Shown: in pieces, positions 36,804-58,407 of the stretch
Position numbering within the stretch: the first letter of the stretch is position 1
Layout of the letters: every line of letters starts with the position of its first letter
NCBI GenBank assembly: GCA_943349825.1
Contig: CALQZQ010000001.1
Span: 34,157-98,156 of the forward strand
Direction of reading: 5' to 3'
DNA length: 64,000 bases
DNA from: Candidatus Peribacteria bacterium
GTDB lineage: Bacteria; Patescibacteriota; Gracilibacteria; UBA1369; 2-02-FULL-48-14
Translations under genes and position numbers: made by a program
Notes under the pieces: model-generated
Databases searched by the model: none
What the model was told of the DNA's origin: nothing
Seen by the model: only the letters and a program-made list of their open reading frames with translations

Positions 36804-37073
36804 ATGAATCTCATGATTGAGCTCGGAAACTTCAAAGATCTTCAGACTTTAGTGGGAATGCTCAACTCTGCGTGGAAGCAGTGGGAATACCGTTTGGAGC
36901 CCGTAGCCGGCGAAGACGGCGTATTTCTATTTGTGGAAGATCCGGTGAAGGAAGATGAATACGAATGTGGTGTGATCACAAAAAAAGGGAAGAAGGCTTA
37001 TGCACTTTCCCAAGACGTTTATGAGCTCGTGATGGGCGCGTATTTGCGCTACAAAGACCAGTTTGGAAAATAG
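36804..37073 (+). CDS. Small hypothetical protein
   Basis: 89-aa ORF with TTGAAA..TATAAT promoter. Confidence 0.6.
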   Translation: MNLMIELGNFKDLQTLVGMLNSAWKQWEYRLEPVAGEDGVFLFVEDPVKEDEYECGVITKKGKKAYALSQDVYELVMGAYLRYKDQFGK

Positions 37074-37379
37074 CGTGAATCTTGAAACCCCAAAACATAA
37101 GAATAGAAGTTCGTGCACCTTTTGTTCAGCATGGAGCGCTCTGAAAAAGTTCATGAACTTTTTCTCTGCTTCCTTTCATGGTTAATGCTTCTCACACGGT
37201 GCACGAACTCCTCTCTGTTGTGGAGTTTCAAACGCTCTTTCCGCCGTTTGGTACACACTGGTTTCTGAAACATAAACCTTAAGGAAGAAGGTAGGCGGAT
37301 CATGCATCCGAGTACCTTCGCTCCTGGCTTCAGAAACCAGTGTGTACCTTAGAGCGAAATGAGGGTTTCAAGATTCACG
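37074..37379. repeat. Two-arm palindromic element (family 1), MITE-like or structured RNA
   Basis: 17-bp terminal IR 37074-37090/37363-37379; arm 1 IR 37108-37119/37198-37209; arm 2 20-bp IR 37250-37269/37329-37348. Confidence 0.85.
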
Positions 37380-37446
37380 TAAAAATAAGGTTGACTAAGG
37401 GGCATGGCCTCTCTTATACTCCACTTCGCTTAAGTGACTTTTTTAT

Positions 37447-37668
37447 ATGGCTCGACCCGCAAATTTCTGGGCTTCCGCTGATCAGAATGAATCTTCTGAG
37501 AAGCGTGTGGCACGTTTCAAACAATGGTTCAACCGTTCTCGTGTTGGTGATCTCGTGAAAGACCGACGTTACCACAAGAAGGCTTTGACTCCTCGTTTGG
37601 TTCGTATTGGTGCTCTCATGCGTGAAGGTTTCCGTACTGAGAAAGAACGAAATAAGTTCTATCAATGA
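37447..37668 (+). CDS. rpsU: 30S ribosomal protein S21 (divergent)
   Basis: 73 aa, basic; ESSEKRVARFK..RRYHKK matches the bS21 pattern ES.E.ALRRFK..R.YY.K. Confidence 0.7.
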   Translation: MARPANFWASADQNESSEKRVARFKQWFNRSRVGDLVKDRRYHKKALTPRLVRIGALMREGFRTEKERNKFYQ

Positions 37669-38468
37669 CCTTGGGTCAGGTTCTCAATTCTGCACAAAAA
37701 GTACAGCTCCGCACTGAAATGGAGCTGTTTTTGAGTCATCTTTTAGGCTGTACTCGCTTGGATTTGATCGCTCACAGTGAACGCGAAGTCCCGGTGGAGC
37801 ATTTGGCGGCGCTTCAGGCGGGGTGGCTCCGCATTCAAGACGGCGTTCCGGTGGCCTATTTGACACATTCCAAGGAATTTTATGGCCACGATTTTTATGT
37901 GGATGAGCGGGTTTTGGTGCCTCGGCCCTGCACGGAATTGCTGGTGGATTGGGTGGCCGCGGTGGCACAGGCGCGCGTGCTCGAAGTGGGCACTGGAAGC
38001 GGAGCTATAGCCGTTTCTTTGAAGCTCAAAAGGCCTGATTTACAGGTGGTGGCAACGGACGTCAGCCCTGAGGTCTTGGAAGTTGCGAGTAAAAATTGTG
38101 TTCAACTGGGCGCGGAAGTGGAATTGCTGGAATCCGATTTGTTGAAAGATCTGCCTCAGGGCGATTTTGATACGCTCGTGACCAACCTTCCTTACATTGG
38201 CACGGCTTCGCACGATGCCATCGCTGAAAATGTACAAAAACACGAGCCGGGTTTGGCTCTTTTTGGGGGAGAAAATGGACTTCAGCTCTATGGGCGACTT
38301 TTTCAGCAAGTTCAGGGCTGGTCTTTCCGCTTCATTTTGGGAGAGATTGGCTTCTCTCAGGCGCAGGACTTAAAAGCCTTGGCGGAGCGGCTTTTGCCAG
38401 GTTGGAAACTCACGCTGCGCCAGGATTTAGAAGGCCTTGATCGGCATTTTCTCCTGGAAAGGAACTGA
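37665..38468 (+). CDS. prmC: Release factor glutamine methyltransferase
   Basis: PVAYL..EFYG..VLVPRP.TE, EVGTGSGAIA, NLPYI; next to prfA. Confidence 0.92.
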   Translation: MTLGQVLNSAQKVQLRTEMELFLSHLLGCTRLDLIAHSEREVPVEHLAALQAGWLRIQDGVPVAYLTHSKEFYGHDFYVDERVLVPRPCTELLVDWVAAVAQARVLEVGTGSGAIAVSLKLKRPDLQVVATDVSPEVLEVASKNCVQLGAEVELLESDLLKDLPQGDFDTLVTNLPYIGTASHDAIAENVQKHEPGLALFGGENGLQLYGRLFQQVQGWSFRFILGEIGFSQAQDLKALAERLLPGWKLTLRQDLEGLDRHFLLERN

Positions 38469-38492
38469 TTTTTCTGATAAAACGAGCCTACT

Positions 38493-39557
38493 ATGCGTGA
38501 GAAATTAAAACAGATCGCCGACGAATACGCTGCTTTGGAAATCCAAATGGGGGATTCGGCCGTGATTGCGAATCAACCGGAATATCAAAAACTCAACCGT
38601 CGCCGCAAAGAATTGGAGCGTACGGTGGAGCTTTATCATGAATTGGTGCGTTTGGATCAGCAGATTACGGACAGCGAGGCGCTGATGAACGATTCCGATG
38701 AAGAAATGCGTGAAATGGCAAGAGAGGAGCTTCAAAATTCGAAGGAAGAATTAGAAAAAGTGGAAGAGGAACTCAAATTGGAATTGGTGCCCAAGGATCC
38801 GATGGATCTGAAAAACTGCATCATGGAAATTCGTGCGGGAACTGGTGGGGACGAAGCGGCTCTTTTTGCCGAAGAACTCTGCCGCATGTACTTGCGTTAT
38901 GTGAAGGACAAGGGCTACCAAACGGAAATGATCAGCCAAAGTGAAGGAGAAAAGGGTTTGAAAGAAGTGATTTTTAAAGTGATTGGGGAGGGGACCTATG
39001 GACGCATGAAGTACGAAAGTGGGGTGCACCGGGTGCAGCGTATTCCCGAAACGGAAGCCAAAGGCCGCGTGCACACGTCGGCGGCTTCGGTGGTGGTGCT
39101 GCCGGAAGTGGACGAATACGAACTGGACATTCGCGATCAAGATTTGCGCATCGACGTGTACCGCTCTGGGGGAAGTGGAGGGCAAAGTGTGAACACCACG
39201 GACAGTGCGGTGCGCATCACGCATTTGCCGTCGGGCTTGGTGGTGACGTGTCAGGACGAACGTTCTCAGCTCAAAAATAAGATCAAAGCCATGGGTGTGC
39301 TGCGTGCACGTTTGTATGCTTTGGAGGAAGAAAAACGTACGAAGGAACTTGGGGAATCGCGACTTTCTCAGATTGGAACGGGCGATCGCAGCGACAAAAT
39401 CCGCACCTACAATTTCCCTCAAGACCGCGTGACCGATCACCGCATCGGTCAAAATTTCAGCAATTTGCCTGGCATTATGGATGGCGACATCGACGATATT
39501 ATCGATGCGTTGCAACTCGACGATCAAACCCAAAAACTTTCTAGAACTGCGGAGTAA
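38493..39557 (+). CDS. prfA: Peptide chain release factor 1
   Basis: [18 protein letters not shown] (PxT), GGQ, RTYNFPQ. Confidence 0.97.
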
Positions 39558-39777
39558 AGTTCTGGAAGCCTTGCTGCTCCATGATCTCGGGGAGGTTTTT
39601 CATGGCGTCTTCTACGCCTTGGTAGAGGACGAAACTTCCCCAAATGGTGAGACCGAGGAAAATGAGTGTGGGGAGCATGCCCAGTACCACTCGCGTGATG
39701 CGGTAGTGACGGGTGCGTTTCATTTCTTCTTTTTGCAGTCCGATGAGTTCTTGCAGGAGGGCTTCGGTGGTGGCCAT
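39541..39777 (-). CDS. Small single-TM hypothetical protein
   Basis: 78 aa with a central hydrophobic helix; fills the prfA-tatD gap. Confidence 0.55.
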
Positions 39778-39813
39778 GTTGTGCGGTTAGATTTCGCACG
39801 CTATTCTACACCC

Positions 39814-40578
39814 ATGTGGATCGATACGCATTGTCATCCGTTCGTGAATGCCAGCTTGGCTGAGCAGGAAGCGATTTTGGCTCGTGCTCGCGAGGCTGGC
39901 GTTGGGCAAATGATCGTGGTGGGTTTTGATAAGGTGGCGAATAGGGAAGCGGTGCGCATGGCGGAGGCTCACGAAGGGCTTTGGGCTGCGGTAGGCGTGC
40001 ATCCGTGTGAGTGTGCGGCTTGGACCGATGAAGAAGAGGTTTTTATCCGTGAAGCGGCCAAAAATCCCAAGGTGGTGGCACTGGGCGAGATGGGGATGGA
40101 TTTTTACCACAAGGATTTCCCCAAAGACGTGCAGGAAGCCACGTTCCGTCGCCAAATTCGCTTGGCCAATGAGTTGGATTTGCCCTGCATCGTGCATTCG
40201 CGCGAAGCGGCGGAAGACACGCTGCGCATTTTATTGGATGAAGGCGCGAAGCGCGCGGTTTTCCACTGTTACAGCTACGACTATGAGTTTGGAAAGAAAG
40301 TCTGGGCCGCCGGGTATTACACTTCATTCAGCGGGGTTTTAACTTATCCCAATGCCAAGCCCATTCAGGAGGCGGCCGCGAAGGGCCCCTTGGACCTAAT
40401 GCTGATTGAAACGGATTGCCCTTGGCTCGCCCCCCAATCCATCCGCGGCAAACCCAACGAAATGGCCTTTGTGGGGGAAGTGGGCAAGAAGCTGGCGGAA
40501 CTCCGGGGTGTGGACTCAGAGGAGATTCAAGAGATCTGCCTTCGGAATGCAAATCGCTTATTCGTGAAGAATACTTAA
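39814..40578 (+). CDS. tatD: TatD-family DNase
   Basis: IDTHCH, GVHP, GEMGMD, VHSR, FHCY, ETDCPWLAP. Confidence 0.93.
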   Translation: MWIDTHCHPFVNASLAEQEAILARAREAGVGQMIVVGFDKVANREAVRMAEAHEGLWAAVGVHPCECAAWTDEEEVFIREAAKNPKVVALGEMGMDFYHKDFPKDVQEATFRRQIRLANELDLPCIVHSREAAEDTLRILLDEGAKRAVFHCYSYDYEFGKKVWAAGYYTSFSGVLTYPNAKPIQEAAAKGPLDLMLIETDCPWLAPQSIRGKPNEMAFVGEVGKKLAELRGVDSEEIQEICLRNANRLFVKNT

Positions 40579-41553
40579 GCACTCTTCTGCAGATTGAGGG
40601 CGCGCTTCTGGTTCGTCTTCTAAGATGTGGTCCAGCATATTAACGAAGCCTTTTACGTGTTGATTCCCGCTCAATGCCAGCCAGTTAGGGCTTTGCCTAA
40701 TGATCTCCCAGTAGCCTTCTTTTTTAAAGCCTAGGCGTACTCTTTTTGAAAGGAGCTTGGCTAAGGTTCTTCCCGTATCGTCGTAGTCATCCCAGCCACG
40801 TACTTGCAGCGGTTTATCTTTAGCCTGTTGTCCTTGAGGGACACCGCCCAGAATATAGGTTGCACCTATGACGCCTATGCTAAAAAGATCGGAAGTGGCG
40901 TGTATTCTTCCTTCACAAGCTTCCGGAGCTAAAAACCAAGCTTGGCCCAAGGGGCCTTCTCCTTGAAGCTCGTCGATTCTTCCCACGCCGTCTGGATCAA
41001 TAAAAGTGCCCGCAGGCATGGTGTTTCTAAGCGATATATCTCTATGAGCCAGTCCCCGTTTGGCTAAAATATTCCAGTTTTCAATCAAACGTAAAGTGTG
41101 TACCATCCCCCGATCTATGTCGGTAGCGGCATCTGCCTTTTCCTTAAATTGATGAGATAAATCCTTTCCATCTACGTAGCTGTAGAGCACCAGATTGTCT
41201 GCTCCCACTTCTTGACTGACGAATTTTTGAATGGTCCCGTCGGGGATGCTTGCCTCCTCGTGCAGTGTTCTCATCGCTCTATCTAAATCCTGTTTTTCTT
41301 TTTTGCTTAAATCTTTGAATACTTTTAGGGTGAATAATTCTCGAGTTTCCCAATCCATCACTAACCATGCGGTGCCGAAAGCACCTTCACCCATCCTCCC
41401 TAAGATCTTAAGTCGCTTACCTTCGAATTGAATCTCCGAATTCGGCTTGTAGATTCTTCCTTGATATCGAAAATGGTTTCGGGTGTCTCCACGTGCATGA
41501 TCCACATGGGAGTGCTCTACCCCTAAATCTTTGAGATACTTGTCAGCAGGCAT
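40558..41553 (-). CDS. Hanks-type protein kinase with atypical motifs
   Basis: GEGAFG, TLKVF, HRDISLRN, IDPDG, LAPE, SDLFSIG, PEARP. Confidence 0.85.
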   Translation of the reverse strand: MPADKYLKDLGVEHSHVDHARGDTRNHFRYQGRIYKPNSEIQFEGKRLKILGRMGEGAFGTAWLVMDWETRELFTLKVFKDLSKKEKQDLDRAMRTLHEEASIPDGTIQKFVSQEVGADNLVLYSYVDGKDLSHQFKEKADAATDIDRGMVHTLRLIENWNILAKRGLAHRDISLRNTMPAGTFIDPDGVGRIDELQGEGPLGQAWFLAPEACEGRIHATSDLFSIGVIGATYILGGVPQGQQAKDKPLQVRGWDDYDDTGRTLAKLLSKRVRLGFKKEGYWEIIRQSPNWLALSGNQHVKGFVNMLDHILEDEPEARPQSAEECLSILHE

Positions 41554-41603
41554 GTATATATTATATAATATATACCGTCTTTGTCAATAACGCTCACATT
41601 CAT

Positions 41604-43427
41604 CTAAGCCGCCTGTCTAAAAAACTCCGGATTTTTGGCCAGGAACTCTGTGCGAGCGGTGCCGGTGGCTTTTTGAAGAATTTCGATGCGGTCCAGCTCC
41701 CAGTTGCAGACGCGATGAGTGATGAGAGAAATGGATTGAGGTGCCAAGTCTTTGGCCATCTTGAATTCCAGTTGGCGTTCTTTCACTTTGTGGTGCATCC
41801 CAGAACCGTCGGCTTCTTCAAAGGCATGAGTGTCTACGCAGATGAGCATGACTTCAACTCGTACCCCTTTTTTTGTCACTCCCAGAAGAGAAATTTTGGG
41901 ATAACGAGCGTGTTTGAAGTCTTTTTCTATAACGAATTGGCCGGGTTCGAGATCGGTAGGTTTTAAGGTTCCTGCTTCTAGTTCAGCAGTTCTATTGGTT
42001 TCCATTCCTAAGCCGTGGGCGGTAGCGACGAGGTTTTCGTACACCATATTTTGTAATTCTTCATCGCTTTCGAGTTCGGTGGAAGTGATCCCGGCCAAGA
42101 TTCCACGGGTTCGGATTTCATCGGGGAAACGATCGGGGCCTACATCTCCGTAACTTTTCCCAAAATATTTATAAACACGAGATTTTTCCATTTTGTCGTC
42201 CACTTCCACAAGGTGGACCAGTTTTTGATATTCTGCCACACTTCGTGCGGTGCGGAGTTTTCTACAGCTTAAAATGGCACCGTTCCCAGTGGCTTCAAAC
42301 TTTTTACCCGTGAATTTTAGCGTTGGGTAGCGCATTTTTTGATTGGGCTGCTGACTTTCAAACATGTTTTCGAGGATTTTTGCATCGGCGTCTTTCACTT
42401 TGTTCGTGGCCTCAATGTTTTGGATCCGACGATTTTGAATGAAATGGATGAAACCGATCACCCACAAGATTTGGGCATCGTTGACGTCGCGTACGTCATC
42501 TCCGGTGTAGAGGTATTCTAAAATTTCATAGGGTGATTTGTTGCGCAGGGATTGATTGAGGTTGGGGGCTTCGTTGTCTTCTCCTTGGATTTGACCAGTG
42601 GCTTCGTAGTGCCGAATGAGGTCTCTTACGGAAAGCATGATGTCGCGAATGAAGTCGCCGGCCCAGTGTAAACTTTCTTGGATATCTGCTTCGAGGCTAG
42701 TCACGTTGTAGCCTTGGATCTCTTTGGGTTGAAGAGGCCTTCTAAGTAACGAGCTAAGTTCTGTTCCACCACTATGGACTTGAAGGTAGCTGGATACGGC
42801 ACGAACTGTTGGGGTTTTTAGAATTTCGGTTTCCGGTATTGCTCCCAAAAGGTATAGGACAGCTGTACTGGCTTTGTCCCTGGGGAGTGCCTCTTTTCCT
42901 ACTAAGATCTGTATTCTTTTGAAGGCTTCCCGGACCTCTAGAGGGGAGAAACTGCGACCTCCTTCTAAGTGAAACTGTGCGTTCTTGAAAATAGAGACCA
43001 AGCGGTCTCGTAAATGAGCTCTTTGAGCCAGGCCGATTTTATGGCGGATTCCATCTCTTTCTTCCTTGATGTCTGGAGCGGTTTTTTCTATCGCTGCCGA
43101 AATATTGTTTGCCGTTTCATCGAGGACTGTCTTCACCATTTCTTCATTTGGCGCTATGGTGATCAGCAACTGACGATGTCCCAGCTCTCTTTGGAGATCT
43201 TTTCCTCCCAATAAAATCCTGTAAATGTCGTTGGTACGAACGGCTTCAGGGAGAACTTCTGGTTTTTGGTCTACGATGGCGCCGGTTTGTTTGCCCAAAT
43301 CTGTAAGCAGTTGAACCTCACTTTCACCCACTCCCACGCTAAAATGGCGCCCAAGAACGGCTCTGCCAGAAAAACCGGCTAGCCCTTGGAGTAAGTCGGA
43401 ATAGTCCTCTGCGCCTTCGGTTGACAT
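41604..43427 (-). CDS. Hypothetical protein with a degenerate C-terminal RelA/SpoT-like nucleotidyltransferase domain
   Basis: DKMEKSRVYK, PDEIRTRGIL, YPKISL, VEVMLI and HHKVKE occur in RelA synthetase order. Confidence 0.45.
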   Translation of the reverse strand: MSTEGAEDYSDLLQGLAGFSGRAVLGRHFSVGVGESEVQLLTDLGKQTGAIVDQKPEVLPEAVRTNDIYRILLGGKDLQRELGHRQLLITIAPNEEMVKTVLDETANNISAAIEKTAPDIKEERDGIRHKIGLAQRAHLRDRLVSIFKNAQFHLEGGRSFSPLEVREAFKRIQILVGKEALPRDKASTAVLYLLGAIPETEILKTPTVRAVSSYLQVHSGGTELSSLLRRPLQPKEIQGYNVTSLEADIQESLHWAGDFIRDIMLSVRDLIRHYEATGQIQGEDNEAPNLNQSLRNKSPYEILEYLYTGDDVRDVNDAQILWVIGFIHFIQNRRIQNIEATNKVKDADAKILENMFESQQPNQKMRYPTLKFTGKKFEATGNGAILSCRKLRTARSVAEYQKLVHLVEVDDKMEKSRVYKYFGKSYGDVGPDRFPDEIRTRGILAGITSTELESDEELQNMVYENLVATAHGLGMETNRTAELEAGTLKPTDLEPGQFVIEKDFKHARYPKISLLGVTKKGVRVEVMLICVDTHAFEEADGSGMHHKVKERQLEFKMAKDLAPQSISLITHRVCNWELDRIEILQKATGTARTEFLAKNPEFFRQAA

Positions 43428-43465
43428 GGAGAATTAATGTTTTGGCGCTAAGCTTACAATAGTTT

Positions 43466-44767
43466 CTACAGCTTTGGCAAGCTTTTCAGATCTGATAGCT
43501 TCTGGATTTTTAGGCCCATTTTCTCTACGGCCTTGCCGCGTTCTTTGTCTTTGTAGCTGGGGCGGACTTCTCCGGTGAGGCTGATTTCGCCGAAAAAGAC
43601 ACTGCCTATGGGAAGAGGTCTTTTTTGAATGCTGGAGGCGATGGCTGCACATACGGCCAGATCTGCGGTGGGATCGCTGAGGGTGAGACCGCCGGTGATG
43701 TTGATGTAGACGTCTTGGTCGGCCAGATTCAGGGTGGTGTGTTTTTGCAGGACGGCGATGAGGAGCTCCAGACGGTTTCTGTCGTAGCCGCTGGCCATGC
43801 GTTTGGGATAGCCAAAGTCTGTATGGTGAACGAGGGCCTGGACTTCCATGAGGAGAGGCCGATTGCCTTCCATGCTCATGGTGAGCGCGCTGCCGATGGC
43901 GGCTTCTGGGCGGTTTTTGAGCACGCGTTCGCCGGGATTTTTCACTTCCGTGAGGCCTTCGCCGGTCATTTCGAAGAGCCCCACTTCGCTTACGGGGCCG
44001 AAACGGTTTTTGAGCGCGCGGAGCATGCGCAGTTCATGATCACGTTCGCCTTCTAGGAGAAGCACCGTGTCCACGAGGTGTTCCAGTACTTTAGGGCCGG
44101 CGATGTTGCCGTCCTTGTTCACGTGGCCAATGAGCAGGGTGGGAATTTTAGCGGTTTTAATGGTGTTCATGATCATTTCCGTGACATAACGGACTTGGCT
44201 GATGCTGCCCGCTACACCTGGAATTTCTGCCGAAGACATGACTTGGATGGAATCGATCACTAGGAACTCCGGTTTTTCGTTCGCGATGGTGGTGAGTATG
44301 TTTTCGAGCGAAGTTTCGTAGAGGATTTGCAGATTGTTTTCACTGGCACCGAGGCGACGCGCGCGGTCTGCGATTTGATCCACGGATTCTTCGCCGGTGA
44401 TGTAGAGCACGCGCTCTTTTTGAGCAGCCATGCGGCTGACCACTTGCAAGGTGAGGGTGGATTTCCCGATGCCGGGTTCGCCGGAAAGGAGAATGAGGCT
44501 GCCTTCCACGAAGCCGCCGCCCAGCACTTGGTCGAATTCGCTGAGGCCGGTGACGAGGCGAGCTTTGGGTGCTGCCTGGTCGGCGAGGCGGCGAGGCTTT
44601 TCTGCGGCGGTGCGCGGGATGCCGTGGCTAGAAAGGGTGTCGCTTTTGCCCACGTTCACCACGTCTTCCACAAAAGTATTCCACTCTCCGCAGCTCGGGC
44701 ATTTCCCTTGCCACTTGGAACTTTCTTGGGAGCAGTTTTGGCAGACGTAGATGGTTTTGAGTTTCAT
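43466..44767 (-). CDS. radA: DNA repair protein RadA/Sms
   Basis: CQNC..CPSC zinc finger, GEPGIGKST, KNRFG. Confidence 0.96.
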   Translation of the reverse strand: MKLKTIYVCQNCSQESSKWQGKCPSCGEWNTFVEDVVNVGKSDTLSSHGIPRTAAEKPRRLADQAAPKARLVTGLSEFDQVLGGGFVEGSLILLSGEPGIGKSTLTLQVVSRMAAQKERVLYITGEESVDQIADRARRLGASENNLQILYETSLENILTTIANEKPEFLVIDSIQVMSSAEIPGVAGSISQVRYVTEMIMNTIKTAKIPTLLIGHVNKDGNIAGPKVLEHLVDTVLLLEGERDHELRMLRALKNRFGPVSEVGLFEMTGEGLTEVKNPGERVLKNRPEAAIGSALTMSMEGNRPLLMEVQALVHHTDFGYPKRMASGYDRNRLELLIAVLQKHTTLNLADQDVYINITGGLTLSDPTADLAVCAAIASSIQKRPLPIGSVFFGEISLTGEVRPSYKDKERGKAVEKMGLKIQKLSDLKSLPKL

Positions 44768-44855
44768 GGCCTTAGGGTAGTATATACTCACCCTATGTGT
44801 CCAGCCTAAATTCAGCCCTTGCCGCTCCAGAGGTGTTTTGCTAAAGTCTCCGCGT

Positions 44856-44931
44856 GGATCGGTAGCTCAGTTGGTAGAGCAGAAGACTCTTAATCTTTTG
44901 GTCGCGGGTTCGACTCCCGCCCGGTCCACCA
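44856..44931 (+). tRNA. tRNA-Lys(CTT)
   Basis: Complete cloverleaf, anticodon loop CT-CTT-AA, TTCGA, encoded CCA. Confidence 0.95.
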
Positions 44932-44946
44932 TTTTAACTTTACGCC

Positions 44947-45504
44947 ATGTCCGATCTACTCACGGTCATCTCTGGAATGTGTTTCATTCGTCCTTTGCCG
45001 CCTCTGCGCAGCACACCGAATGTGGAGTTCAATGTGATTCCTGTTTTGGATCAGCTCTCAGCCATCGACCGTGTGCGTCATGCGCCGGGGGCTTACAGTC
45101 CTTCTGTGCCTGGTACGGAGTTGCGGCCGTGGTACATGCATCCGGATCAAGAGGACAATTTATTGGTGTGTGAGGGAAGACGCGTGGTGGAACTCTACAA
45201 TAAAGAACATGGCACCGTGGAAACTTTTGAAGTCACTCCCAATCGCTTGATGCAGTGCAAACCGAATCTTTCCGAATGCCGTGTGATTTACGAAGGCCCG
45301 CACATTTTCGGTTGGCCCAAAAACGTTTTCCATCGTGTATACAGCCCAGAAGGCAGTTTCTCCATCAATTTTGCTCGGCACTACGAGGGTTTTGACATGT
45401 CGACCAACTTCAACATTTATGAACTCAACACCGATACCGGTGATTATTCCGTAGTGCGAGAAGGCCACCTGGATCAACCCAGCAACTTAGTGATGGGTGA
45501 CTAG
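44947..45504 (+). CDS. Cupin-fold protein (RmlC-like family)
   Basis: PWYMHPDQEDNL...FHRV two-motif cupin pattern. Confidence 0.65.
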   Translation: MSDLLTVISGMCFIRPLPPLRSTPNVEFNVIPVLDQLSAIDRVRHAPGAYSPSVPGTELRPWYMHPDQEDNLLVCEGRRVVELYNKEHGTVETFEVTPNRLMQCKPNLSECRVIYEGPHIFGWPKNVFHRVYSPEGSFSINFARHYEGFDMSTNFNIYELNTDTGDYSVVREGHLDQPSNLVMGD

Positions 45505-45548
45505 GGCTTGAGCTCGCGGGCTCTTCTGTGTAAAGTTCCTGCGGTTAC

Positions 45549-45623
45549 GGCAAGGTGGCGGAGTGGCTACGCAGCAGTTTGCAAAACTGTACCACATGGG
45601 TTCGAGTCCCATCCTTGCCTCCA
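45549..45623 (+). tRNA. tRNA-Cys(GCA)
   Basis: Cloverleaf GGCAAGG/CCTTGCC, anticodon GCA, U73, CCA. Confidence 0.95.
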
Positions 45624-45644
45624 TTCATTTTCGGATTCCACCGC

Positions 45645-45730
45645 GCCTGGGTGGTGAAATGGTATACACGCGAGACTTAAAATCTTGTGGCCGCAAGGCC
45701 GTGTGGGTTCGAGCCCCACCCCAGGCACCA
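45645..45730 (+). tRNA. tRNA-Leu(TAA)
   Basis: Cloverleaf with long variable arm GGCC-GCAA-GGCC, anticodon TAA, CCA. Confidence 0.95.
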
Positions 45731-46684
45731 TCAATAATCGTAGAAGTGTTCCAGCTGAACGCCTTCTTTCTCTAAGCTGGGAAGAAGATTTTGGAGTTCA
45801 CCCACTGAGGCGCTGATGCCTACTCTTTTTCGTGTGGGATCCGTGAGGATTTTCATGGAAAAAAGCACAGAGGCGTTTTCCACTTGTTCATCCCATTCGT
45901 GCGGGGCCAGTACAGTCATAAAAAGAGTTTCGTTGCCGGCGATGTCGTGGAGCACGAGGCCTTCTTTGAGCAGCTGAGGCAGCGTTTCGGTGAAGAGGCG
46001 GTAGCGGGGGATTTGAATGACTTCTCCTGAAGTGCTGGTGGCGTAGATGGTGTCCGGTTGGATGCCGTAAACTCCGTGACTTGCTGCACCCACCAGTTTG
46101 GCGTAGAGGCTTTTTGTCCCGAGTTCTAAGGAAAGGGCAAAACGACGTTCCCATTTTCGCAGCATGTGATCCCCTAATAATGGGGTTTCGGTCCAGAGTT
46201 GCTTCAGTTCAGTTCCGAAATCAAATTCGTACCAGGGGCGGTCGTAAATGAAACCGACATAATCTTGGTTGTATTGATACGCGAACAGGTCCTCTTCGGT
46301 TTTTTCGTTGTGAGCGCTCCATTCGCTGGCCCAACCTGTAGTGTGTTCGTAGGCATTTTTGATCAGCGCCTCTGCAGTGAAACTGCTCCCGATCACCCAG
46401 AGCATCAAATGGTCGCCGGCGTTGAAACCGTAACGGCTTTTGGTGATCGTGTAAACCTTGTAGTAACTGCTCCAAAACTGCTGAGCTGAGGCCAGGTAGG
46501 GAAATTCGCTGGGGTTTTGGTCTTGAATGAAATCCGCGTACTCTTCAGAACTATAAACAATGAACCACTCCGGAAAGGTGAGGTAAGTGCTTTCTTCGGA
46601 ACGAGCGTAATCTTCAGGCACGTCTGCTAGGGCCGTGGAAGCGCTCAGGGCCAGTACGATGAGTGTGGCGAGAGTTTTTTTCAT
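45731..46684 (-). CDS. Exported hypothetical protein
   Basis: Signal peptide MKKTLATL..ALA; TYLTFPEW; ATGA-coupled to the upstream membrane gene. Confidence 0.7.
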   Translation of the reverse strand: MKKTLATLIVLALSASTALADVPEDYARSEESTYLTFPEWFIVYSSEEYADFIQDQNPSEFPYLASAQQFWSSYYKVYTITKSRYGFNAGDHLMLWVIGSSFTAEALIKNAYEHTTGWASEWSAHNEKTEEDLFAYQYNQDYVGFIYDRPWYEFDFGTELKQLWTETPLLGDHMLRKWERRFALSLELGTKSLYAKLVGAASHGVYGIQPDTIYATSTSGEVIQIPRYRLFTETLPQLLKEGLVLHDIAGNETLFMTVLAPHEWDEQVENASVLFSMKILTDPTRKRVGISASVGELQNLLPSLEKEGVQLEHFYDY

Positions 46685-47106: not shown

Positions 47107-47164
47107 AGTGGGGCGTGAAGAATTGTGCTAATACTAAAGCACCTTCCACTCCTCTACAACTCCT

Positions 47165-49133: not shown

Positions 49134-49877
49134 GAGCACTGCTACTCCCAGCGTAAAGAAAGGGAGGCTCAGCATTTGCCCGGTGGTCAGGCTGAAGAAA
49201 CTTTCGTGAAGCGGAAAATCTTTGAAGAATTCCACCGTGAAACGTAGGGCAAAGTAGAGGGTGAAAAACACACCGAAGAAGAAGCCCGGCTTCGCGGTTT
49301 TGCTATGGTTGTGCCAGAGCGCGAACATGATGGCAAACAGAGCCATGCCCATGCCGAATTCGTAGAGTTGTGAGGGGTGGCGGGCGAGTTCGTCCACGCG
49401 CGTGAAGGTCACAGCCCAGGGCACATCGGTGGCGCGGCCCACGAGTTCACTGTTGAAGAAATTGCCCAGGCGAATGAAACTCACGGGAATACAGGCTACG
49501 ACCACGATGAGATCGGCAAAGTCGAAGAATTTGAGTTTTTTGTGGCGCCATAAAAAGAGTCCGTAAGCGATGAGCAGTCCGATGGCCGCTCCGTGACTGG
49601 CCAGGCCGCCCTTCCATACTGCTAGAATTTCAATGGGGTGAGCGAGGTAGTAAGCCAGTTCGTAAAACACAATGTGACCGAGGCGCGCGCCCACAATGAG
49701 GCCAATCACCAAGTAAACGGTGAGGCTGTCGAGCAGCTCCAGCGGGAGTTTTTTTTCTTTGCACAGTTTGCGCGCCAGTTCGTAGGCCAGCAGCAGCGCT
49801 ACCGCAAATAGGACTCCGTAATAACGGATTTCTAGCGGGCCAAGGTGAACGAGTACGGGATCAATGTTCCAAATCAT
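49104..49877 (-). CDS. lgt: Prolipoprotein diacylglyceryl transferase
   Basis: IRYYG, GARLGH, GGLASHG, RLGNFFNSE..G, RHPSQLYE, R..VEFFK. Confidence 0.95.
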   Translation of the reverse strand: MIWNIDPVLVHLGPLEIRYYGVLFAVALLLAYELARKLCKEKKLPLELLDSLTVYLVIGLIVGARLGHIVFYELAYYLAHPIEILAVWKGGLASHGAAIGLLIAYGLFLWRHKKLKFFDFADLIVVVACIPVSFIRLGNFFNSELVGRATDVPWAVTFTRVDELARHPSQLYEFGMGMALFAIMFALWHNHSKTAKPGFFFGVFFTLYFALRFTVEFFKDFPLHESFFSLTTGQMLSLPFFTLGVAVLLKSLIARKN

Positions 49878-50452
49878 CGGACAGCGAAAGAGTTAAGCAT
49901 GGTTTCCATTTGTTCCACGGTTGCGTCTTCTTCGTCCGGACGGTAGCTGGCGGTCACGACCCAGGCACGATCGGCTTTGCAGAGCACCAGTTGCATGAAG
50001 TTCAAGGTGGGCCCCTCAGTGGTGTTTTTTCCCGCGAAAATGTTCAAAATGGTGGCGCTGTCCGCTCCGGCCACAGTGAGGGTGAGTTCTTCCTGTGAAA
50101 TCAGTTCGTAGTTGAGCAAGTGATCGTCGTGGTTTTGCAGCTTGGTTTGGGTGTAGTCCGCGCTGGTCAACTTCTTTGCGTTTTCTTCGCGCACCACGGT
50201 GACGTTGGCGGTGAAACTGGTATTTTGCACATTGTTTTTAAAAGCGATGCGTAGTCCTGAGGGGTAGTCGTCGGTGAAATCATTGAGGGTTTCCCAAGTG
50301 TCGGGCACGTCGATGTTGAAATCGCTGGTTTTGTAGGTCACGTAACGGGGGGTTTCAGAATTACTGCTAGTGACGTCTATGACGGTGGAAGAACCTCCAC
50401 AGCCGGTGAGCAGCAGAGAAGTGAGGAAAATGGTGGCGAGGAACTTTTTCAT
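49874..50452 (-). CDS. Lipoprotein, PsbP/DUF1795-like
   Basis: LLLTGC lipobox; FNIDVPDTW; FTANVTV; coupled to lgt. Confidence 0.65.
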   Translation of the reverse strand: MKKFLATIFLTSLLLTGCGGSSTVIDVTSSNSETPRYVTYKTSDFNIDVPDTWETLNDFTDDYPSGLRIAFKNNVQNTSFTANVTVVREENAKKLTSADYTQTKLQNHDDHLLNYELISQEELTLTVAGADSATILNIFAGKNTTEGPTLNFMQLVLCKADRAWVVTASYRPDEEDATVEQMETMLNSFAVR

Positions 50453-50540
50453 GTGGGTATTTTAGCAGATTTTTTAGGGAAATCTCTTGACTTCATTTTA
50501 CGTATTCTATAAATATGTTCCACGTAAGTTTGCTCTTTGA

Positions 50541-50728
50541 AAAATCATCTTTCTGTAAGAATTCTCTTTTTCTTCTCCTCGCGGAGAAGGAAGGGCCTAA
50601 GCCGGTAACGAATTCAGCAAGTCAAATAAGGTTTTCCCTGAAGATCTCTTTGAATTTCTGAGCCTCGTCGGTTGCTTTTAGTAGGGGGAGTGAAGAATAG
50701 GAGAATTCTCATCGTAAGGTGGGATTTT
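50541..50728 (+). ncRNA. Probable 6S RNA
   Basis: About 190-nt irregular rod (AGAATTCTC/GAGAATTCT, TTCTTC/GAAGAA, CTCCTC/GGGGAG, central bubble, AGCCGG/TCGGTT, GAATTCA/TGAATTT); G-U pairs favour the + strand; upstream TTGACT promoter. Confidence 0.5.
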
Positions 50729-50746
50729 ATTATTTTATTTTTATTT

Positions 50747-50941
50747 ATGACGGATCGTTTACCTACGATAGGTGTTGATGAAAGCAATACTTTTGTTTCG
50801 CTTGAGCACCGTATTGGCATTGCAGTGGAAGCTGCTCGCTTGAGGAATCTTACGGGGCGTGAGCCAGAGGCAAGAGAAGTTTTGGAGGGTGTGACAGCTG
50901 GTGTGAGAGCTCGTTTTGAAGGGAATGTTGACCGCAGTTAG
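50747..50941 (+). CDS. Small hypothetical protein
   Basis: 64-aa ORF after an AT-rich leader TTTTATTTATG. Confidence 0.45.
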   Translation: MTDRLPTIGVDESNTFVSLEHRIGIAVEAARLRNLTGREPEAREVLEGVTAGVRARFEGNVDRS

Positions 50942-50962
50942 TTTCTCCCCTTCAATAGAGGC

Positions 50963-51856
50963 ATGAAAATCGGTATTCTTTGTTTTCGCTCCTACGATTC
51001 TTACGAAGGGAAAAGTGAACGAGCGCTTCAAGAAGCTGCGAAAAATTTGGGGTACGAAGGCTTGTTGATTCAAGTCCCGCTCCTCAGCTTTGAGCCCGAT
51101 GGTGAAATTTTGTATGATGGCCAGCTTTTCCCTGCAGTGGATGGTCTGGTTTCTCGTGCGCGGGTGATCGACCAGGTGGAAAACCGACTTTTTGTACTCA
51201 AACTCCTAGAAGAAAAAGGATTTCCGATGGTGAACTCTTATGGAGCTTTGGTGGCTTCTAAAAACAAGTGGTTTGCCACTGAGCAGTTGCGAAAGGCGGG
51301 TGTAGCCACGGTGCCCACTTGGGTGGTGGAAGATGAAGCGATGGCTTTTCAGACTGCTGAAAAAATCGGCTACCCGGTGGTGGTGAAAATGTCTTATGGA
51401 ACCTATGGATTGGGAGTCGCTAAGGCGGAGAATGAAGTGGAGCTGCGAGGAATTTTAGGGCGATTTTGGAAGGCAGATTTTATTCAACCTATTTTGCTGC
51501 AACCCTTTATTGCTGAAGCGAAAGGGAAGGATCATCGAGTGTTTGTGGTGGGTGACCGAGTGGTGGCGAGCATGGAGCGCAGGGCACCTGCGGGGGATTT
51601 TAGAGCCTACTCGCCTAAGGTGGAGAACGCCTTGCCTATAGAAATTTCTGCTCAAGAAAAGGCCCTGGCCATTGCCGCCGTGGCTGCTGTGGGCTTGGAT
51701 TATGCCGGAGTGGATATCATTGAAACGGCGACTGGCCCTGCGGTGCTGGAAGTGAATGGCAACGCAGGACTCATGCGTATTTCCGGTGTGACGGGGGTGG
51801 ACGTGCCTCGCGCCCTCATTGAATTTGCCGTTTCACGCTTTCGGAAAGCCGCGTGA
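50963..51856 (+). CDS. RimK-family ATP-grasp ligase
   Basis: KNKW, YPVVVK..GTYGLGV, QPFI, DHRVFVVG, GDFRA, YAGVDI, LEVN. Confidence 0.88.
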   Translation: MKIGILCFRSYDSYEGKSERALQEAAKNLGYEGLLIQVPLLSFEPDGEILYDGQLFPAVDGLVSRARVIDQVENRLFVLKLLEEKGFPMVNSYGALVASKNKWFATEQLRKAGVATVPTWVVEDEAMAFQTAEKIGYPVVVKMSYGTYGLGVAKAENEVELRGILGRFWKADFIQPILLQPFIAEAKGKDHRVFVVGDRVVASMERRAPAGDFRAYSPKVENALPIEISAQEKALAIAAVAAVGLDYAGVDIIETATGPAVLEVNGNAGLMRISGVTGVDVPRALIEFAVSRFRKAA

Positions 51857-52901
51857 GGAGCTCGTAGGGAATAGTGCCGGCTTTGGAAGCTTGGCTCTGT
51901 ATGCTGTTTTTGTCGGCGGGATTTTTGGAGTACACGGTGACTTCGTCGCCGACGCTGGCGGTGACGCCTTTTAGCGAAATGAGGGTGTGGTTCATGCAGA
52001 CGCGGCCCAGGATGGGGCAGCTGATGCCGTTGATGTTGACCGTGCCTTTGTTGCTCAGGCTGCGTGGAATTCCTTCGTAGTAGCCCGCAGCTATGATTCC
52101 GATGACTTCGTTTTTCTTTGCAGTGTAGGTTTCGCCGTAGCTCACACTTTCCCCTTTTTGAATACTCTGGATTCCGATCAAAGTGCTGCGGAATTCCAAA
52201 GTGGGGCGGAGGGATTTTAGCTCGGGCTGGATTCCATACATTCCAATCCCAATGCGGGCCATATTGAATTCGGGACTTTTGGCTTTGAGAGCGCCCGCCG
52301 AATTGGCGATGTGCACCCACTTGGGCTTGAAGCCGGCTTTTTTCAGTGAGGCAAGCACTTTGTTGAAACGCGTGATTTGGAGTTTGGTCAGGGGACTTTT
52401 TGCGTCGTCGGCGCTGGCAAAGTGGGAGTAAATCCCCTCAATTTTCGGATTGAGTTTTTGAATGTAGGGCAAGATCTTGGGCCATTCGTTCCAAGAAAAT
52501 CCCATTCGGTTCATGCCGGTGTTGATCTTCAAATGGATGGGCAGCTTGAGTTTGCTCAGCACTTCCAAACTGTGCAGATCGTGCGCGGTGAAATGAAAGG
52601 GAAGTCCTTTGTGTAGGTTTTCCTCGAAGTTGTAGCCCAGGATCAAAATGGGGGTTTTGATGCGCGCTTTTTGGAGTTCGTAAGCTTCGTAGAGCGAATC
52701 CACGCAGAAAAAATCGCAGCCTTCGCGGTCTAGAATTTTGGCGGTGAGTGTGAGCCCATGGCCGTAGGCGTTGGATTTGAGCACGGGGCACACAGCAGTG
52801 CCGGGCAGCAGCTTCCTATATAAAGAGAGGTTGTGCTTCAAAGCGGATTCATCGATGAGAATCCGATTGAGCGTGCGGTATTTTTGCCAGGGAAGGCGCA
52901 T
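51816..52901 (-). CDS. alr: Alanine racemase
   Basis: VLKSNAYGHG, HLKINTGMNRMG, SHFASAD, ANSAG, VSYG, GRVCMN, TIPYELL; ATG at 52901 preferred because the longer start lies inside a palindromic element. Confidence 0.93.
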   Translation of the reverse strand: MRLPWQKYRTLNRILIDESALKHNLSLYRKLLPGTAVCPVLKSNAYGHGLTLTAKILDREGCDFFCVDSLYEAYELQKARIKTPILILGYNFEENLHKGLPFHFTAHDLHSLEVLSKLKLPIHLKINTGMNRMGFSWNEWPKILPYIQKLNPKIEGIYSHFASADDAKSPLTKLQITRFNKVLASLKKAGFKPKWVHIANSAGALKAKSPEFNMARIGIGMYGIQPELKSLRPTLEFRSTLIGIQSIQKGESVSYGETYTAKKNEVIGIIAAGYYEGIPRSLSNKGTVNINGISCPILGRVCMNHTLISLKGVTASVGDEVTVYSKNPADKNSIQSQASKAGTIPYELLTRLSESVKRQIQ

Positions 52902-53072
52902 TGAGGAACCTGTGAAAAAGTACATTCAGCATGTCTCAAGGGATCTTTTTTCGCAAGTCGTCGTTAATTCTCCTCGACGTATCCATCTGATACGCCTTCG
53001 TCGTCTTGCCTAGACTTGCGAAAAAATCTCTACCTTTTTCCAAAGCAGAAGTACTTTTTCACAGGTTCCTTA
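52902..53072. repeat. Single-arm palindromic element (family 2) filling the clpP-alr junction
   Basis: 20-bp IR 52904-52923/53051-53070; inner IR 52946-52959/53013-53026; tip hairpin CGTATC-CATCT-GATACG. Confidence 0.85.
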
Positions 53073-53744
53073 GCGGCTGGTCACAATCGCGTCGATGAGG
53101 CCGTATTTCTTGGCTTCTTCGGCGGTCATGAAATTGTCGCGATCCGTATCCGCTTCCACTTTGGCGAGTTTTTGCCCCGTGTGTTTGACCAAAATGCCGT
53201 TCAAGAGGTTCTTGGTGCGGATGATGTGGTCGGCGTGAATGCGGATGTCTGTGGCTTGGCCTTCTGTTCCTCCCAAAGGTTGATGAATCATGATTTCAGC
53301 GTTGGGAAGGGAGAAGCGTTTGCCTTTTTGTCCTCCAGTGCAGATGATGGCGCCCATGGAAGCAGCCATTCCCATCACCACGGTGGAAACGTCGGGTTTC
53401 ACGTATTGCATGGTGTCGTAAATGGCGAGACCCGCGGTCACGTGGCCCCCGGGGGAGTCGATGTACATGATGATGTCGCGTTTGGCATCCTCGTTTTCTA
53501 AGAAGAGCATTTGCGCGATCAAGAGCCCTGCCATATTGGATTCCACTTCGGTGAACATGAACATCACGCGATCCTTTAAGAGGCGAGAGTAAATGTCGTA
53601 GGCGCGTTCTCCTTCGTGCGATTTCTCAATCACGGTGGGAACGAGCATTCCGGTGATCTCTTTGGAGATGCCGGTGTTGTTGGATAAACCTTTAACCTGA
53701 CTTTTAAGAAGACTCGAACGAGTAAAATGAAAGAAGTTGGACAT
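53070..53744 (-). CDS. clpP: ATP-dependent Clp protease proteolytic subunit
   Basis: [35 protein letters not shown]; N-terminal propeptide or later start. Confidence 0.96.
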
Positions 53745-54536: not shown

Positions 54537-55991
<1,455 letters not shown>

Positions 55992-56158: not shown

Positions 56159-56210
56159 GTTGTTTAAATTTACTATTTTGTATAGATTAACAATAATTTA
56201 TCGCCTCTTC

Positions 56211-56543: not shown

Positions 56544-56636
56544 CTATGTCACTCATTTTGTGTAACTTTTTTTTGCGAGCCTTGTTTAAGGGAATGACAT
56601 GCACGTCTTTCTACTAGTTTTTTAACCCCCAAAACT

Positions 56637-58076
56637 ATGTTGCTCAAACGTTTTATTACTATAGCGCTTTTACTTGCGCTTTCCAGCAGTGCAGTGATGC
56701 CGCTGGCTGCTTTTGCAGAAGATGGTGAAGATACTGCTGCCCAGGCACAAGCCGATGCTGATGCCGCCGCTGCTGCCCAGGCACAAGCCGATGCTGATGC
56801 TGCCGCTGATGCTGCCGCTGCCGCTGCTGCTGAATCTGATGTAGTAGTGGAAGTTGTTTCTGATGAGGCTCAAGACGCTGTAGATGCAGTGGCCGACTAT
56901 GCTGGAGAAAGTGAAGGTGAAGTTCAGGTGACGGAGGAAGGCACTACGGTGACTTCTGAAGAAGTGGATGAAGAGGCCTTTACTACGGAGATGCAAGAAG
57001 ATTTGGTGGCTTCAACTGAAGCTCCAGACCAATTTTTTGTGGCAGTGATGTGGGGTGCCTTTAGCGACGGTGACACCGACCTGCAAAGATCAAGTGAAGA
57101 CACATCGACCATCGCTTCCACTACTTGGGACGGAATGATCACTATAGATAATGATGCTGGTGAAGGAGTTTTCTCTCGTCCAGTGAAGACCCTTTTGTTT
57201 GAACGTGATCAGGATTCTCTGGATTTCGAAAACATGACTATCAACGAATTACCTTTTGTTTCCACCATCTACAATCATCACGATGGGGTTCTCATTAAGG
57301 TTCGAACGGATCTCGACAGTTCTGACTCAGGAAAAATCTCCTTTGAGACCGCTTTCAGCACTGATGTGACCGCTGTTTATTTGGCTGATCTTGTGGGTGC
57401 CGGCAGTGCCGAATTCACTTATGGTGACTATAAGGTGGTCATGACAGTGCTTTCCAGAGAAGACTGGATCAATGCGCAGGGCTCCGGCTCCAGCTCAACA
57501 GGTACTCGACCCACGGATGCTGAACCAGGTGCTTGGTATGAAGGGTTCATGAATTATAACTTGGCTCACAACATCATCAGTGGTTATGCGGATGCCAATG
57601 GAAGGTTCAATGGAAAAGTAGGTCCTGGGGACACTTTGACTCGTCTTCAACTCCTCAAGATTGTTTACGAAATTTCTGATAACACCTGTGACCCTAAAAC
57701 AGTAGCGCAGGATTCTTCTACGGACTGGATGGGGGACAATTGGGCACGTGGCTATGTGGAGTGTACAGAGGGGCTTGGCCTCACTTTACTGGATGATGTG
57801 ATTCAGAGTGATTTGAGCAAAGCACAGGCGCCAGCCTTTCGTTGGGAAGTAGTGGTGCTTGCTTGTGAACTGCTTGGTCTGGAATCTGCAGGAGCACCTG
57901 ACACTACTCTTTCGGATGTTGCCAACAGTGGGTTGGATCCTGTCTTCATCGACATGATCGATGAACTGGTTGACCTGGGAGTCATCTCTGGAAATCCAGA
58001 TGGCACTTTTAGACCTTACAACACTGTCAATCGAGCCGAAGCCTTTAAGATTTTGGCCCTCCTTGACGTCCTCTAA
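56637..58076 (+). CDS. Acidic S-layer-homology (SLH) domain protein
   Basis: Signal peptide; 36-nt Ala/Asp tandem repeat near 56736-56810; IISGYAD..LTRLQ and VISGNPDGTFRPYNTVNRAE. Confidence 0.85.
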   Translation: MLLKRFITIALLLALSSSAVMPLAAFAEDGEDTAAQAQADADAAAAAQAQADADAAADAAAAAAAESDVVVEVVSDEAQDAVDAVADYAGESEGEVQVTEEGTTVTSEEVDEEAFTTEMQEDLVASTEAPDQFFVAVMWGAFSDGDTDLQRSSEDTSTIASTTWDGMITIDNDAGEGVFSRPVKTLLFERDQDSLDFENMTINELPFVSTIYNHHDGVLIKVRTDLDSSDSGKISFETAFSTDVTAVYLADLVGAGSAEFTYGDYKVVMTVLSREDWINAQGSGSSSTGTRPTDAEPGAWYEGFMNYNLAHNIISGYADANGRFNGKVGPGDTLTRLQLLKIVYEISDNTCDPKTVAQDSSTDWMGDNWARGYVECTEGLGLTLLDDVIQSDLSKAQAPAFRWEVVVLACELLGLESAGAPDTTLSDVANSGLDPVFIDMIDELVDLGVISGNPDGTFRPYNTVNRAEAFKILALLDVL

Positions 58077-58096
58077 TTTACTTAAGGTTGTATACG

Positions 58097-58135
58097 TCGG
58101 GGCTGCTCCGGGGAGGGAGTGGCCCCGATTTTTTG
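58097..58135 (+). terminator. Intrinsic terminator of the SLH gene
   Basis: TCGGGGCTGCTCC...GGAGTGGCCCCGA followed by a T-tract. Confidence 0.75.
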
Positions 58136-58136
58136 T

Positions 58137-58407
58137 TAGGAGCTATCTCCACAAAATTGCTCTAGATGGAAGCACTCCATTTCTTTCAGGCTAAGGAATG
58201 ACAACGAAGGTGTGCCAGAGGCACATCAAGGAGGAATGACGCAAGAATGAATGAAATGGGAAGCTTCCCTTCGGGTTGATAAGTAAGTAGCTCATCTGCT
58301 TTGTCATTTGTCGCTCACGCACCACAGGGTGCGTCACGCTCCTCTTTCCGTGCATCTAAACTACTTACTTATCAACCATCAGAGCAATTTTGTGGAGATA
58401 GCTCCTA
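58137..58407. repeat. Two-arm palindromic element (family 2), MITE-like
   Basis: 27-bp terminal IR TAGGAGCTATCTCCACAAAATTGCTCT 58137-58163/58381-58407; arm 1 about 58168-58268; arm 2 17-bp IR 58274-58290/58361-58377. Confidence 0.88.

Follow-up and report, generated by a model that had tools for sequence, protein, structure and literature searches.

Palindromic elements anchored at gene ends in a compact Peribacteria genome: probable non-autonomous, MITE-like DNA transposons with structured hairpin cargo

The window analysed here, a stretch of 64,000 nucleotides from the genome of a Candidatus Peribacteria bacterium, contains four strongly folding palindromic elements that begin at positions 37074, 52904, 58137 and 61502. 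The palindromes are insertions relative to genomes of the same genus. They are probably non-autonomous DNA transposons akin to MITEs (miniature inverted-repeat transposable elements), with at least two or three types of ends, that have invaded one lineage of a compact genome of the Candidate Phyla Radiation (CPR). An initial annotation, made from the letters of the window, had proposed a non-autonomous element system that inserts at gene ends. This proposal is supported by empty sites, by the target duplications of the 37074 family, by a second 58137-type copy at another locus of genome G003, and by the match of the 58137 ends to an IS5-family insertion sequence (IS) in genome G004. The window corresponds to G000:C1:34157-98156, where G000 denotes the genome that holds it (a 1.25-Mb assembly in 12 contigs, 98.8% complete) and G001 to G005 are genomes of the same genus; positions follow the numbering of the window unless a contig is given.

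Empty sites were found in same-genus genomes for all four elements. At the 37074 site, G001 through G005 align to both flanks with the 306 bp missing (5/5). G005 reads ...GAAAATAAGGTTGAC where G000 reads ...GAAAATAG, then the element, then TAAAAATAAGGTTGAC, a comparison which implies that AAAATA was duplicated and that the insertion occurred within the old stop codon TAA. G005 and G003 lack the 52904 element, G005, G004 and G003 lack the 61502 element, and the corresponding G005 site is without the 58137 element. A copy of the latter that is 84% identical resides at an unrelated locus of G003, with several paired changes in its outer and inner stems. Four more G000 copies outside the window are likewise matched by empty sites in G005.

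Direct repeats of 5–8 nt, located within 2 nt of the ends, flank 11 of 16 bounded elements of the 37074 family (7 from G000 and 9 from relatives), compared with repeats of at least 5 nt in 0.8% of 240 mismatched flank pairs used as a control. The 61502 element lies between two copies of a 9-bp direct repeat, AAGGGCGTG, whose right copy at 61636-61644 implies that the insertion takes in a 31-nt tail (61605-61635). Contigs from independent metagenome runs contain the 37074 element together with its junctions, and short joints inside the element in such contigs resemble other copies of the family. In run X3, a 157-nt contig matches 52904-53060 almost end to end with 15 differences, at a depth of 11.6 as against approximately 2 nearby; another organism in that sample probably carries an element related to that at 52904 as a repeat.

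The four palindromes measure 103–306 bp and hold only short spurious open reading frames (ORFs), being short and non-coding as MITEs are, and their terminal inverted repeats, with arms of 17–27 bp, are also of the MITE kind. The arms pair perfectly over 20/20 positions in 52904-53070, 27/27 in 58137-58407 and 20/20 in 61502-61604, and the outer arms of 37074-37379 read CGTGAATCTTGAAACCC, giving a palindrome of the form CGTG...CACG. The folding z-scores against shuffled sequences range from -8.9 to -12.8 on both strands. Genome-wide, 43 perfect inverted repeats with arms of at least 14 nt were counted, versus 1–3 in each of three block shuffles.

The contacts with stop codons that the initial annotation described are all present in the sequence. 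The 37074 element directly follows TAG 37071-37073, the stop of an ORF of 89 amino acids. The 52904 element shares its last base with the clpP stop (TTA 53070-53072, minus strand), of which it forms the first letter on the plus strand, and at the other end of the element 2 nt separate it from the alr start (CAT 52899-52901). The stop of an OmpR-type regulator, CTA 58405-58407, coincides with the tip of the 27/27 perfect outer repeat of the 58137 element. No stop is in contact with the 61502 element, which sits between two divergent starts. Gene identities near the elements are taken from Pfam profile matches.

The same annotation described the 37074 and 58137 elements as doublets, each consisting of an outer inverted repeat around two arms in opposite orientation. 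This is the case for the 37074 element, whose two hairpins carry a common core, termed motif A, in opposite orientation. The 58137 element has the outer repeat and two inner hairpins, but only hairpin 1 aligns with the 52904-type core, termed motif B. Hairpin 2 showed no significant similarity to motif B in either orientation (best BLAST E 0.13), so the statement that each strand reads one motif is shown for the 37074 element only. Likewise, of the two motif families said to occur both as singlet and as doublet, motif A does so (37074 doublet, 61502 singlet), and motif B occurs as a singlet at 52904 and in one of the two hairpins of 58137. The coordinates are collected in Table 1.

Table 1. 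Palindromic elements of the window, their parts and the direct repeats that flank them.
Feature	Position	Strand	Description and evidence
Doublet element, 306 bp, multi-copy CGTGAATCTTGAAAC family	37074..37379		Terminal inverted repeats around two long hairpins; missing at the orthologous site in 5/5 same-genus genomes
Left terminal inverted repeat of 37074 element	37074..37090	+	15 invariant pairs in 6 copies; TGA in 2/3 frames within 13 nt, counted from the preceding base
Right terminal inverted repeat of 37074 element	37363..37379	-	Same evidence as left repeat (end pairs across copies)
Motif-A core, hairpin 1 of 37074 element	37123..37197	+	GGAGCG, CATG-looped helix, CTTCC, asymmetric 3' loop; covariance model R1 match G000:C1:71279-71353, E 2.7e-16
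Motif-A core, hairpin 2 of 37074 element, reverse orientation	37261..37334	-	R1 match G000:C1:71417-71490, E 8e-16
Target duplication AAAATA, left copy	37067..37072		TA + base 37073 = stop TAG; G005 empty site reads GAAAATAAGG
Target duplication AAAATA, right copy	37382..37387		Flank comparison with the empty site
Single long hairpin, 167 bp, motif-B core	52904..53070		Occupies the entire spacer between clpP stop and alr start; spacer ~5-6 nt in G005 and G003
271-bp element, two inner hairpins	58137..58407		27-bp perfect ends TAGGAGCT...; IS5-family-type ends, TA at both tips
Inner hairpin 1 of 58137 element	58164..58272	+	Motif-B core, common to 52904 and three other genome copies
Inner hairpin 2 of 58137 element	58274..58377		Not demonstrably motif B
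Single motif-A hairpin, 103 bp	61502..61604	+	Core 61520-61589
9-bp direct repeat AAGGGCGTG, left copy	61496..61504		Flanks the 61502 insertion; one copy at the G004 empty site
9-bp direct repeat AAGGGCGTG, right copy	61636..61644		Paired with 61496..61504

Two observations concern the immediate neighbourhood of these elements. The longest alr ORF (51816-52925) begins at an ATG inside the 52904 element (52923-52925), and the start conserved in the relatives is the CAT at 52899-52901; automatic annotation would probably over-extend alr. More generally, gene ends and starts near the elements are prone to mis-calling, and some ORFs end within a terminal repeat. At 58098-58136, between a gene with an SLH domain and the 58137 element, a G+C-rich hairpin is followed by a T run. 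G005 has this hairpin too, at its empty site, and it probably represents the native terminator for the two convergent genes.

The initial annotation named IS5-family transposases with matching ends as a possible source, and this turned out to be right for the 58137 family only. The same-genus genome G004, a single contig of 1.3 Mb, contains an 849-bp IS in copies that are 99–100% identical. It encodes DUF4096 (6e-21) and DDE_Tnp_1 (5.5e-14), which is the IS5-family build, and its ends read TAGGAGCTGTTAACATAA. Compared with these ends, the G003 copy of the 58137 element is identical at 17/18 positions (by eye, with a one-base shift) and the G000 copy at 13 of the first 19. The IS is flanked by CTA...TA[A/G] in 4/4 delimited G004 copies, and TA occurs at each tip of the 58137 element in G000 as well as in G003. 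The regulator stop CTA is present at the G005 empty site; in G000 its C comes from the element and its TA from the flank. Ends that match a DDE_Tnp_1 IS together with a TA-type target, which characterize IS5-derived MITEs, were thus found for 58137, and this element is, judged by its sequence, a plain member of that kind with unusual cargo. G004 is also very rich in ISs for a CPR genome: 18 DDE_Tnp_1, 18 Y1_Tnp and 22 rve matches were found, and at least four IS types (849, ~1281, 1137 and ~946 bp) as well as a 552-bp IS200-like element were recognized.

The absence of a transposase, noted initially for the window, extends to the whole 98.8%-complete genome, where ten Pfam transposase families were without a match. 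The families searched include DDE_3, DDE_Tnp_1, Y1_Tnp, rve, Transposase_mut, the TnpB zinc ribbon, IS110, IS1595 and ISL3; DUF4096 was not searched separately. Because these ten families were not found in G000, the elements are regarded as non-autonomous, that is, MITE-like. The only recombinases found were two tyrosine recombinases of ~306 amino acids each. An enzyme of the HUH/RAYT class, the other source named initially, is not borne out, as Y1_Tnp has no match in G000 and the IS200-like element of the relatives has unlike ends. A DDE transposase acting in trans would have moved the elements, and for 58137 this would have been an IS5-family enzyme.

A multi-copy family of proteins of ~265–300 amino acids, with no Pfam match and with a C-terminal His/Cys-rich motif that by eye is HNH-like, is represented outside the window by G000:C2:198894-199685 and 11 further G000 matches. 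It occurs in 113 of 151 genomes of the order, with up to 30 matches per 1.2-Mb genome, and looks like a selfish multi-copy gene. It was rejected as a candidate mobiliser, because its distribution (113/151) does not track that of motif A (22/151).

The 37074 element belongs to a family with approximately 12 copies or fragments in G000 as detected by BLAST, which are 72–84% identical; seven have both end repeats. In six full copies, 15 end pairs never vary and 25 of 103 predicted pairs display double, pair-keeping changes. The invariant terminal inverted repeat of the family is 15–19 bp long, and 12 of 15 ends read by eye are preceded by A, so that the element is best written A-CGTG...CACG-T. 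These invariant ends and covarying inner stems fit an end sequence that is read by a protein and stems that are needed for their structure. The end word, allowing at most one mismatch, occurs in 9 of 28 family genomes, nearly always as inverted pairs 165–305 bp apart; the reversed word, used as a control, gave 0–1 matches per genome. In G004, G021, G023 and G042 (loci L031, L032, L034-L036 and L038-L040) the same CGTGAATCTTGAAAC ends enclose another interior of ~200 bp, with a short G+C-rich hairpin at its centre. A terminator was considered as an identity for this different cargo in G004 and was rejected, the scan having given none within the element.

A scan of metagenome contigs with the 19-mer end yielded nine loci, namely five pairs ~168 bp apart, one element of ~45 bp (contig L260) that consists of the two ends only, and three solo ends. 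One of these three lies within a gene, and none has a partner end or a transposase ORF. Among the matches listed in a scan of species genomes for the exact 15-mer, there are scattered singles in unrelated phyla, which are taken to be chance, and one pair, in a metagenome-assembled genome labelled Gracilibacteria.

In G000, our simple gene caller found 1178 genes with 89% of the sequence coding. The median spacer measures 22 nt where neighbouring genes are co-directional, 3 nt where they converge and 100 nt where they diverge, and all three stop codons are in use (TAA 541, TAG 329, TGA 308). The proposed enrichment of the elements at stop codons was confirmed: of 13 elements with sharp boundaries, 9 have an end no more than 3 nt away from a called stop, where 4.39 are expected if each element is placed uniformly within the spacer that holds it (simulated P ~5e-6). 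Among the insertion points of all intergenic sequence, only 2.4% count as stop-adjacent (binomial P ~2e-12). The four misses, 61502 included, all lie between divergent gene starts, and the five elements that had room elsewhere in their spacer are all at its stop-proximal end (5/5). When the A, B and 37074 groups are pooled (22 elements), 17 have a called stop that overlaps them or lies within 27 nt of an end, four sit in divergent start/start spacers, and none (0/22) is inside a called gene.

The anchoring extends to the letters of the junctions. Eight of 11 duplications, read by eye, contain a stop trinucleotide or its complement. At 37073, 53070 and 58405 a stop is rebuilt from TA and a base of the element, and the 37074-type end has TGA at bases 4–6 and 11–13, which closes two further frames. 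Directly after the 37074 element there is a promoter-like TTGACT-18-TATACT (37391-37420). The 61502 element was considered as a supplier of a -35 box and rejected, as the spacing does not fit.

Three causes may contribute to this anchoring. The targets may contain TA or be rich in A/T, and where a spacer is only a few nucleotides long, the stop codon would often be the sole such site. The elements begin with a purine, so that TA and the first element base would give TAA or TAG, and the TGAs of the 37074-type end, in two further frames, would close clipped gene ends at once. Finally, selection may remove insertions in genes and in promoter or start regions; in co-directional spacers, the remainder of the spacer would hold the promoter of the next gene. 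On the present data, targeting and selection may each have produced the anchoring. To land on stop codons and to repair them with its own ends would be a simple rule by which mobile DNA persists in a maximally compact genome.

The inner hairpins are best defined for motif A. Its core reads, in order, GGAGCG, a helix with a loop centred on CATG, CTTCC, and an 11-nt 3' loop whose last letters are GTTTATG, and is common to both 37074 hairpins, the 61502 hairpin and hairpins in other genera. Double changes affect 6 of 13 core pairs in 33 sequences, 32 of which were used to build the covariance model R1. A search of 151 genomes of the order with this model found motif A in 22, with 17/22 in the family of G000, 4/9 in a second family and none in 17 other families sampled. 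G000 has 22 copies, G042 has 25, G074 has 29 and G009 has 17; of the same-genus genomes, G001 has two and G002 to G005 have none. Matches ~100–140 nt apart, paired by eye, are always arranged (+) then (-). The model allows the family to be traced in other metagenomes.

Motif B is common to the 52904 element, to three G000 hairpins of 162–164 bp that are 93–96% identical, and to hairpin 1 of the 58137 element. A BLAST search with a motif-B singlet in the 28 family genomes returned matches in G000 only, apart from one weak match in G043. Four further hairpins (G000:C1:26262-26385, C1:217270-217380, C3:119081-119197 and C3:189207-189307) carry a variant core, which reads AACTAGAAAG, a perfect 32-nt palindrome centred on TCATGA, and then CGCTTCC; it is akin to motif A and differs in the asymmetric part.

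The transposon interpretation has to be set against a number of observations that weigh against it. All stop and spacer statistics are based on gene calls from our own crude caller, not a standard one. The duplications of the 37074 family vary from 5 to 8 bp and 5 of the 16 elements are without any, no clear target duplication was found for the 52904 element or for the three motif-B singlets that are nearly identical to one another, and the TA seen at either tip of 58137 could belong to the repeat and not to a duplication. In the four DNA runs examined over 36700-53500, the 37074 element is present in contigs from two metagenome runs, and no contig skips it cleanly. No autonomous element with 37074-type ends was found in the 28 family genomes, around eight solo ends, at the nine metagenome loci or among the IS types delimited in G004: partner ends within 4 kb of the eight solo ends were matched only with four mismatches, and none of the inverted ends at other transposase loci of relatives match the 37074-type end. 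The stems are near-perfect and the end repeat is invariant in copies that are only 72–83% alike, in a genome in which no transposase was found. Such intact stems and ends are not explained by neutral decay, and require recent arrival from diverged sources or structural selection in place.

Structural selection in place is what would be expected if the hairpins were 3'-end modules selected by the host, such as transcript stabilisers, RNase III-type processing sites or insulators, with mobility only as the means of spread and with doublets serving both directions of transcription. This is close to the 3'-UTR processing module that the initial annotation offered as an alternative, and it would account for the compensatory changes in the stems (25/103 pairs in six copies, 6/13 core pairs in 33 sequences), the conservation of the core across two bacterial families, the abutment of most elements on stops, the (+) then (-) order of doublet cores, which makes both strands read alike, and the undecayed repeats and stems. 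We nevertheless consider it unlikely, and it does not stand as the primary explanation. Four of the five same-genus genomes are without a motif-A match, and the function is thus not needed. Of 28 motif-A matches in G074, 16 lie in co-directional spacers, with singlets split 8:8 between sense and antisense, while six are in convergent spacers, one is in a divergent spacer and five are unresolved or in a called ORF. Four of the 22 elements are situated between divergent starts. In 57 modules, with outer stems averaging ~27 pairs, G.U pairs occur on both strands (82/1548 on the motif strand vs 118/1560 on the other), and the other strand folds better by 4.3 kcal/mol on average. An intrinsic terminator scan of 36900-37700 gave 0 terminator-like sites, and the covariance models of Rfam 15, searched over 36000-62500, produced no match at any element at E values up to 1. 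This evidence argues against a strand-specific RNA function, not against a symmetric structural effect.

It is very unlikely, in our judgement, that the cores are instead recognized on single-stranded DNA by a structure-specific enzyme (HUH/Y1-type or an unknown nuclease), in which case the modules would be the true mobile units, sometimes nested in end-repeat shells. The conserved core amid outer stems that differ wholly between elements, the presence of the same cores inside different end types, the motif-B singlets without a detectable target duplication, and the perfectly paired arms, as expected of a folded single-strand intermediate, are in line with such a mechanism. Against it, Y1_Tnp has no match in G000, the Y1_Tnp of relatives sits in the 552-bp IS200-like element, which has hairpin ends that do not resemble motif A or B, the repeat-bounded elements make duplications of 5–8 bp, unlike HUH transposition, and the HNH-like family does not follow the distribution of motif A. 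Chance inverted repeats or assembly artefacts can practically be dismissed: a metagenome assembly in 12 contigs is all that speaks for them, and the excess of long perfect repeats over the shuffles, the occurrence of the 37074 element with its junctions on independent contigs of other runs, and the related copies in other genomes speak against them.

Within the preferred interpretation as MITE-like transposons, the motif-A and motif-B hairpins would be cargo or structural cores whose pairing is kept by compensatory change, and this pairing would most likely serve the DNA-level propagation of the element itself and not a strand-specific RNA function. A bolder reading, to which we give only a small chance, is that motif A, and perhaps B, is a structure-defined mobile or domesticated CPR module, with an asymmetric core and covarying stems of 20–30 bp, that is carried in several unrelated transposon shells, is arranged head-to-head in doublets, and stays perfectly paired without a transposase. 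If true, either the host keeps the module, for example as an orientation-independent boundary element where neighbouring genes are just a few nucleotides apart, or it spreads in trans in a hairpin-dependent manner, for example from a phage or a neighbouring cell.

Two further features of the window are unrelated to the palindromes. The 16S rRNA gene at 54537-55991 is solitary, with no 23S or 5S match within 36000-62500. At 62002-62166, eight in-register repeats of 15 nt at a gene's end code for a tail rich in Pro, Met and Gly (PMGPA/PMGPQ-like).

CPR bacteria are usually described as poor in mobile DNA, and their genomes, of ~1.2 Mb, have spacers of a few nucleotides. G000 has over 20 structured mini-transposons and no match to any of the ten transposase families searched, and G004 of the same genus holds dozens of IS copies. 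Among known systems, the IS5 family includes IS427/IS1031-like two-ORF elements with TA or YTAR-type targets. The 58137 element resembles IS5-derived MITEs in being short and non-coding, in the match of its 27-bp inverted ends to the 849-bp DUF4096 and DDE_Tnp_1 IS, in the TA at its tips, and in its copy elsewhere in G003. It differs in that its interior consists of two long hairpins and is not a deletion remnant of an IS, one of its motifs occurs in elements with other ends, and the cognate IS was not found in G000.

REP, BIME and REPIN sequences, which are associated with RAYT, consist of palindromic units of 20–40 nt that occur as singlets and inverted doublets, intergenic and in multiple copies. 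The elements described here share the singlet and inverted-doublet arrangement, the intergenic position and the multiple copies, together with stems that are kept paired, but their units are 100–160 nt long, their doublets have terminal inverted repeats and make duplications of 5–8 bp, and no Y1/RAYT gene was found in G000. The Correia (NEMIS) elements of Neisseria duplicate TA, and Rickettsia palindromic elements are tolerated at the coding level. By architecture, both are comparable to the present elements, being small, repeat-bounded, strongly folding, and located beside or in genes. In contrast to the Rickettsia elements, 0/22 are inside a called gene here, and tolerance would come from a stop that is rebuilt or supplied, not from in-frame insertion. 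The BOX elements of pneumococcus are modular (boxA-boxB-boxC) and, again by architecture, have a variable number of structured inner modules between conserved ends; the inner modules in G000 are mutually inverted, with a conserved asymmetric core, and the host belongs to another phylum.

A literature search that covered titles and the openings of abstracts found no paper on such elements in CPR, Patescibacteria or Peribacteria. The mechanism is of a known kind, and the host group, the cargo and the anchoring rule are apparently undescribed as far as this search of titles and abstract openings shows. Taken together, the 37074 family and the motif-A and motif-B hairpins are a modular MITE-like variant that is set apart from the REPIN kind by the RAYT result, recalls REPIN doublets, BOX and Correia elements in its build, and adds to them the rebuilding of stop codons.

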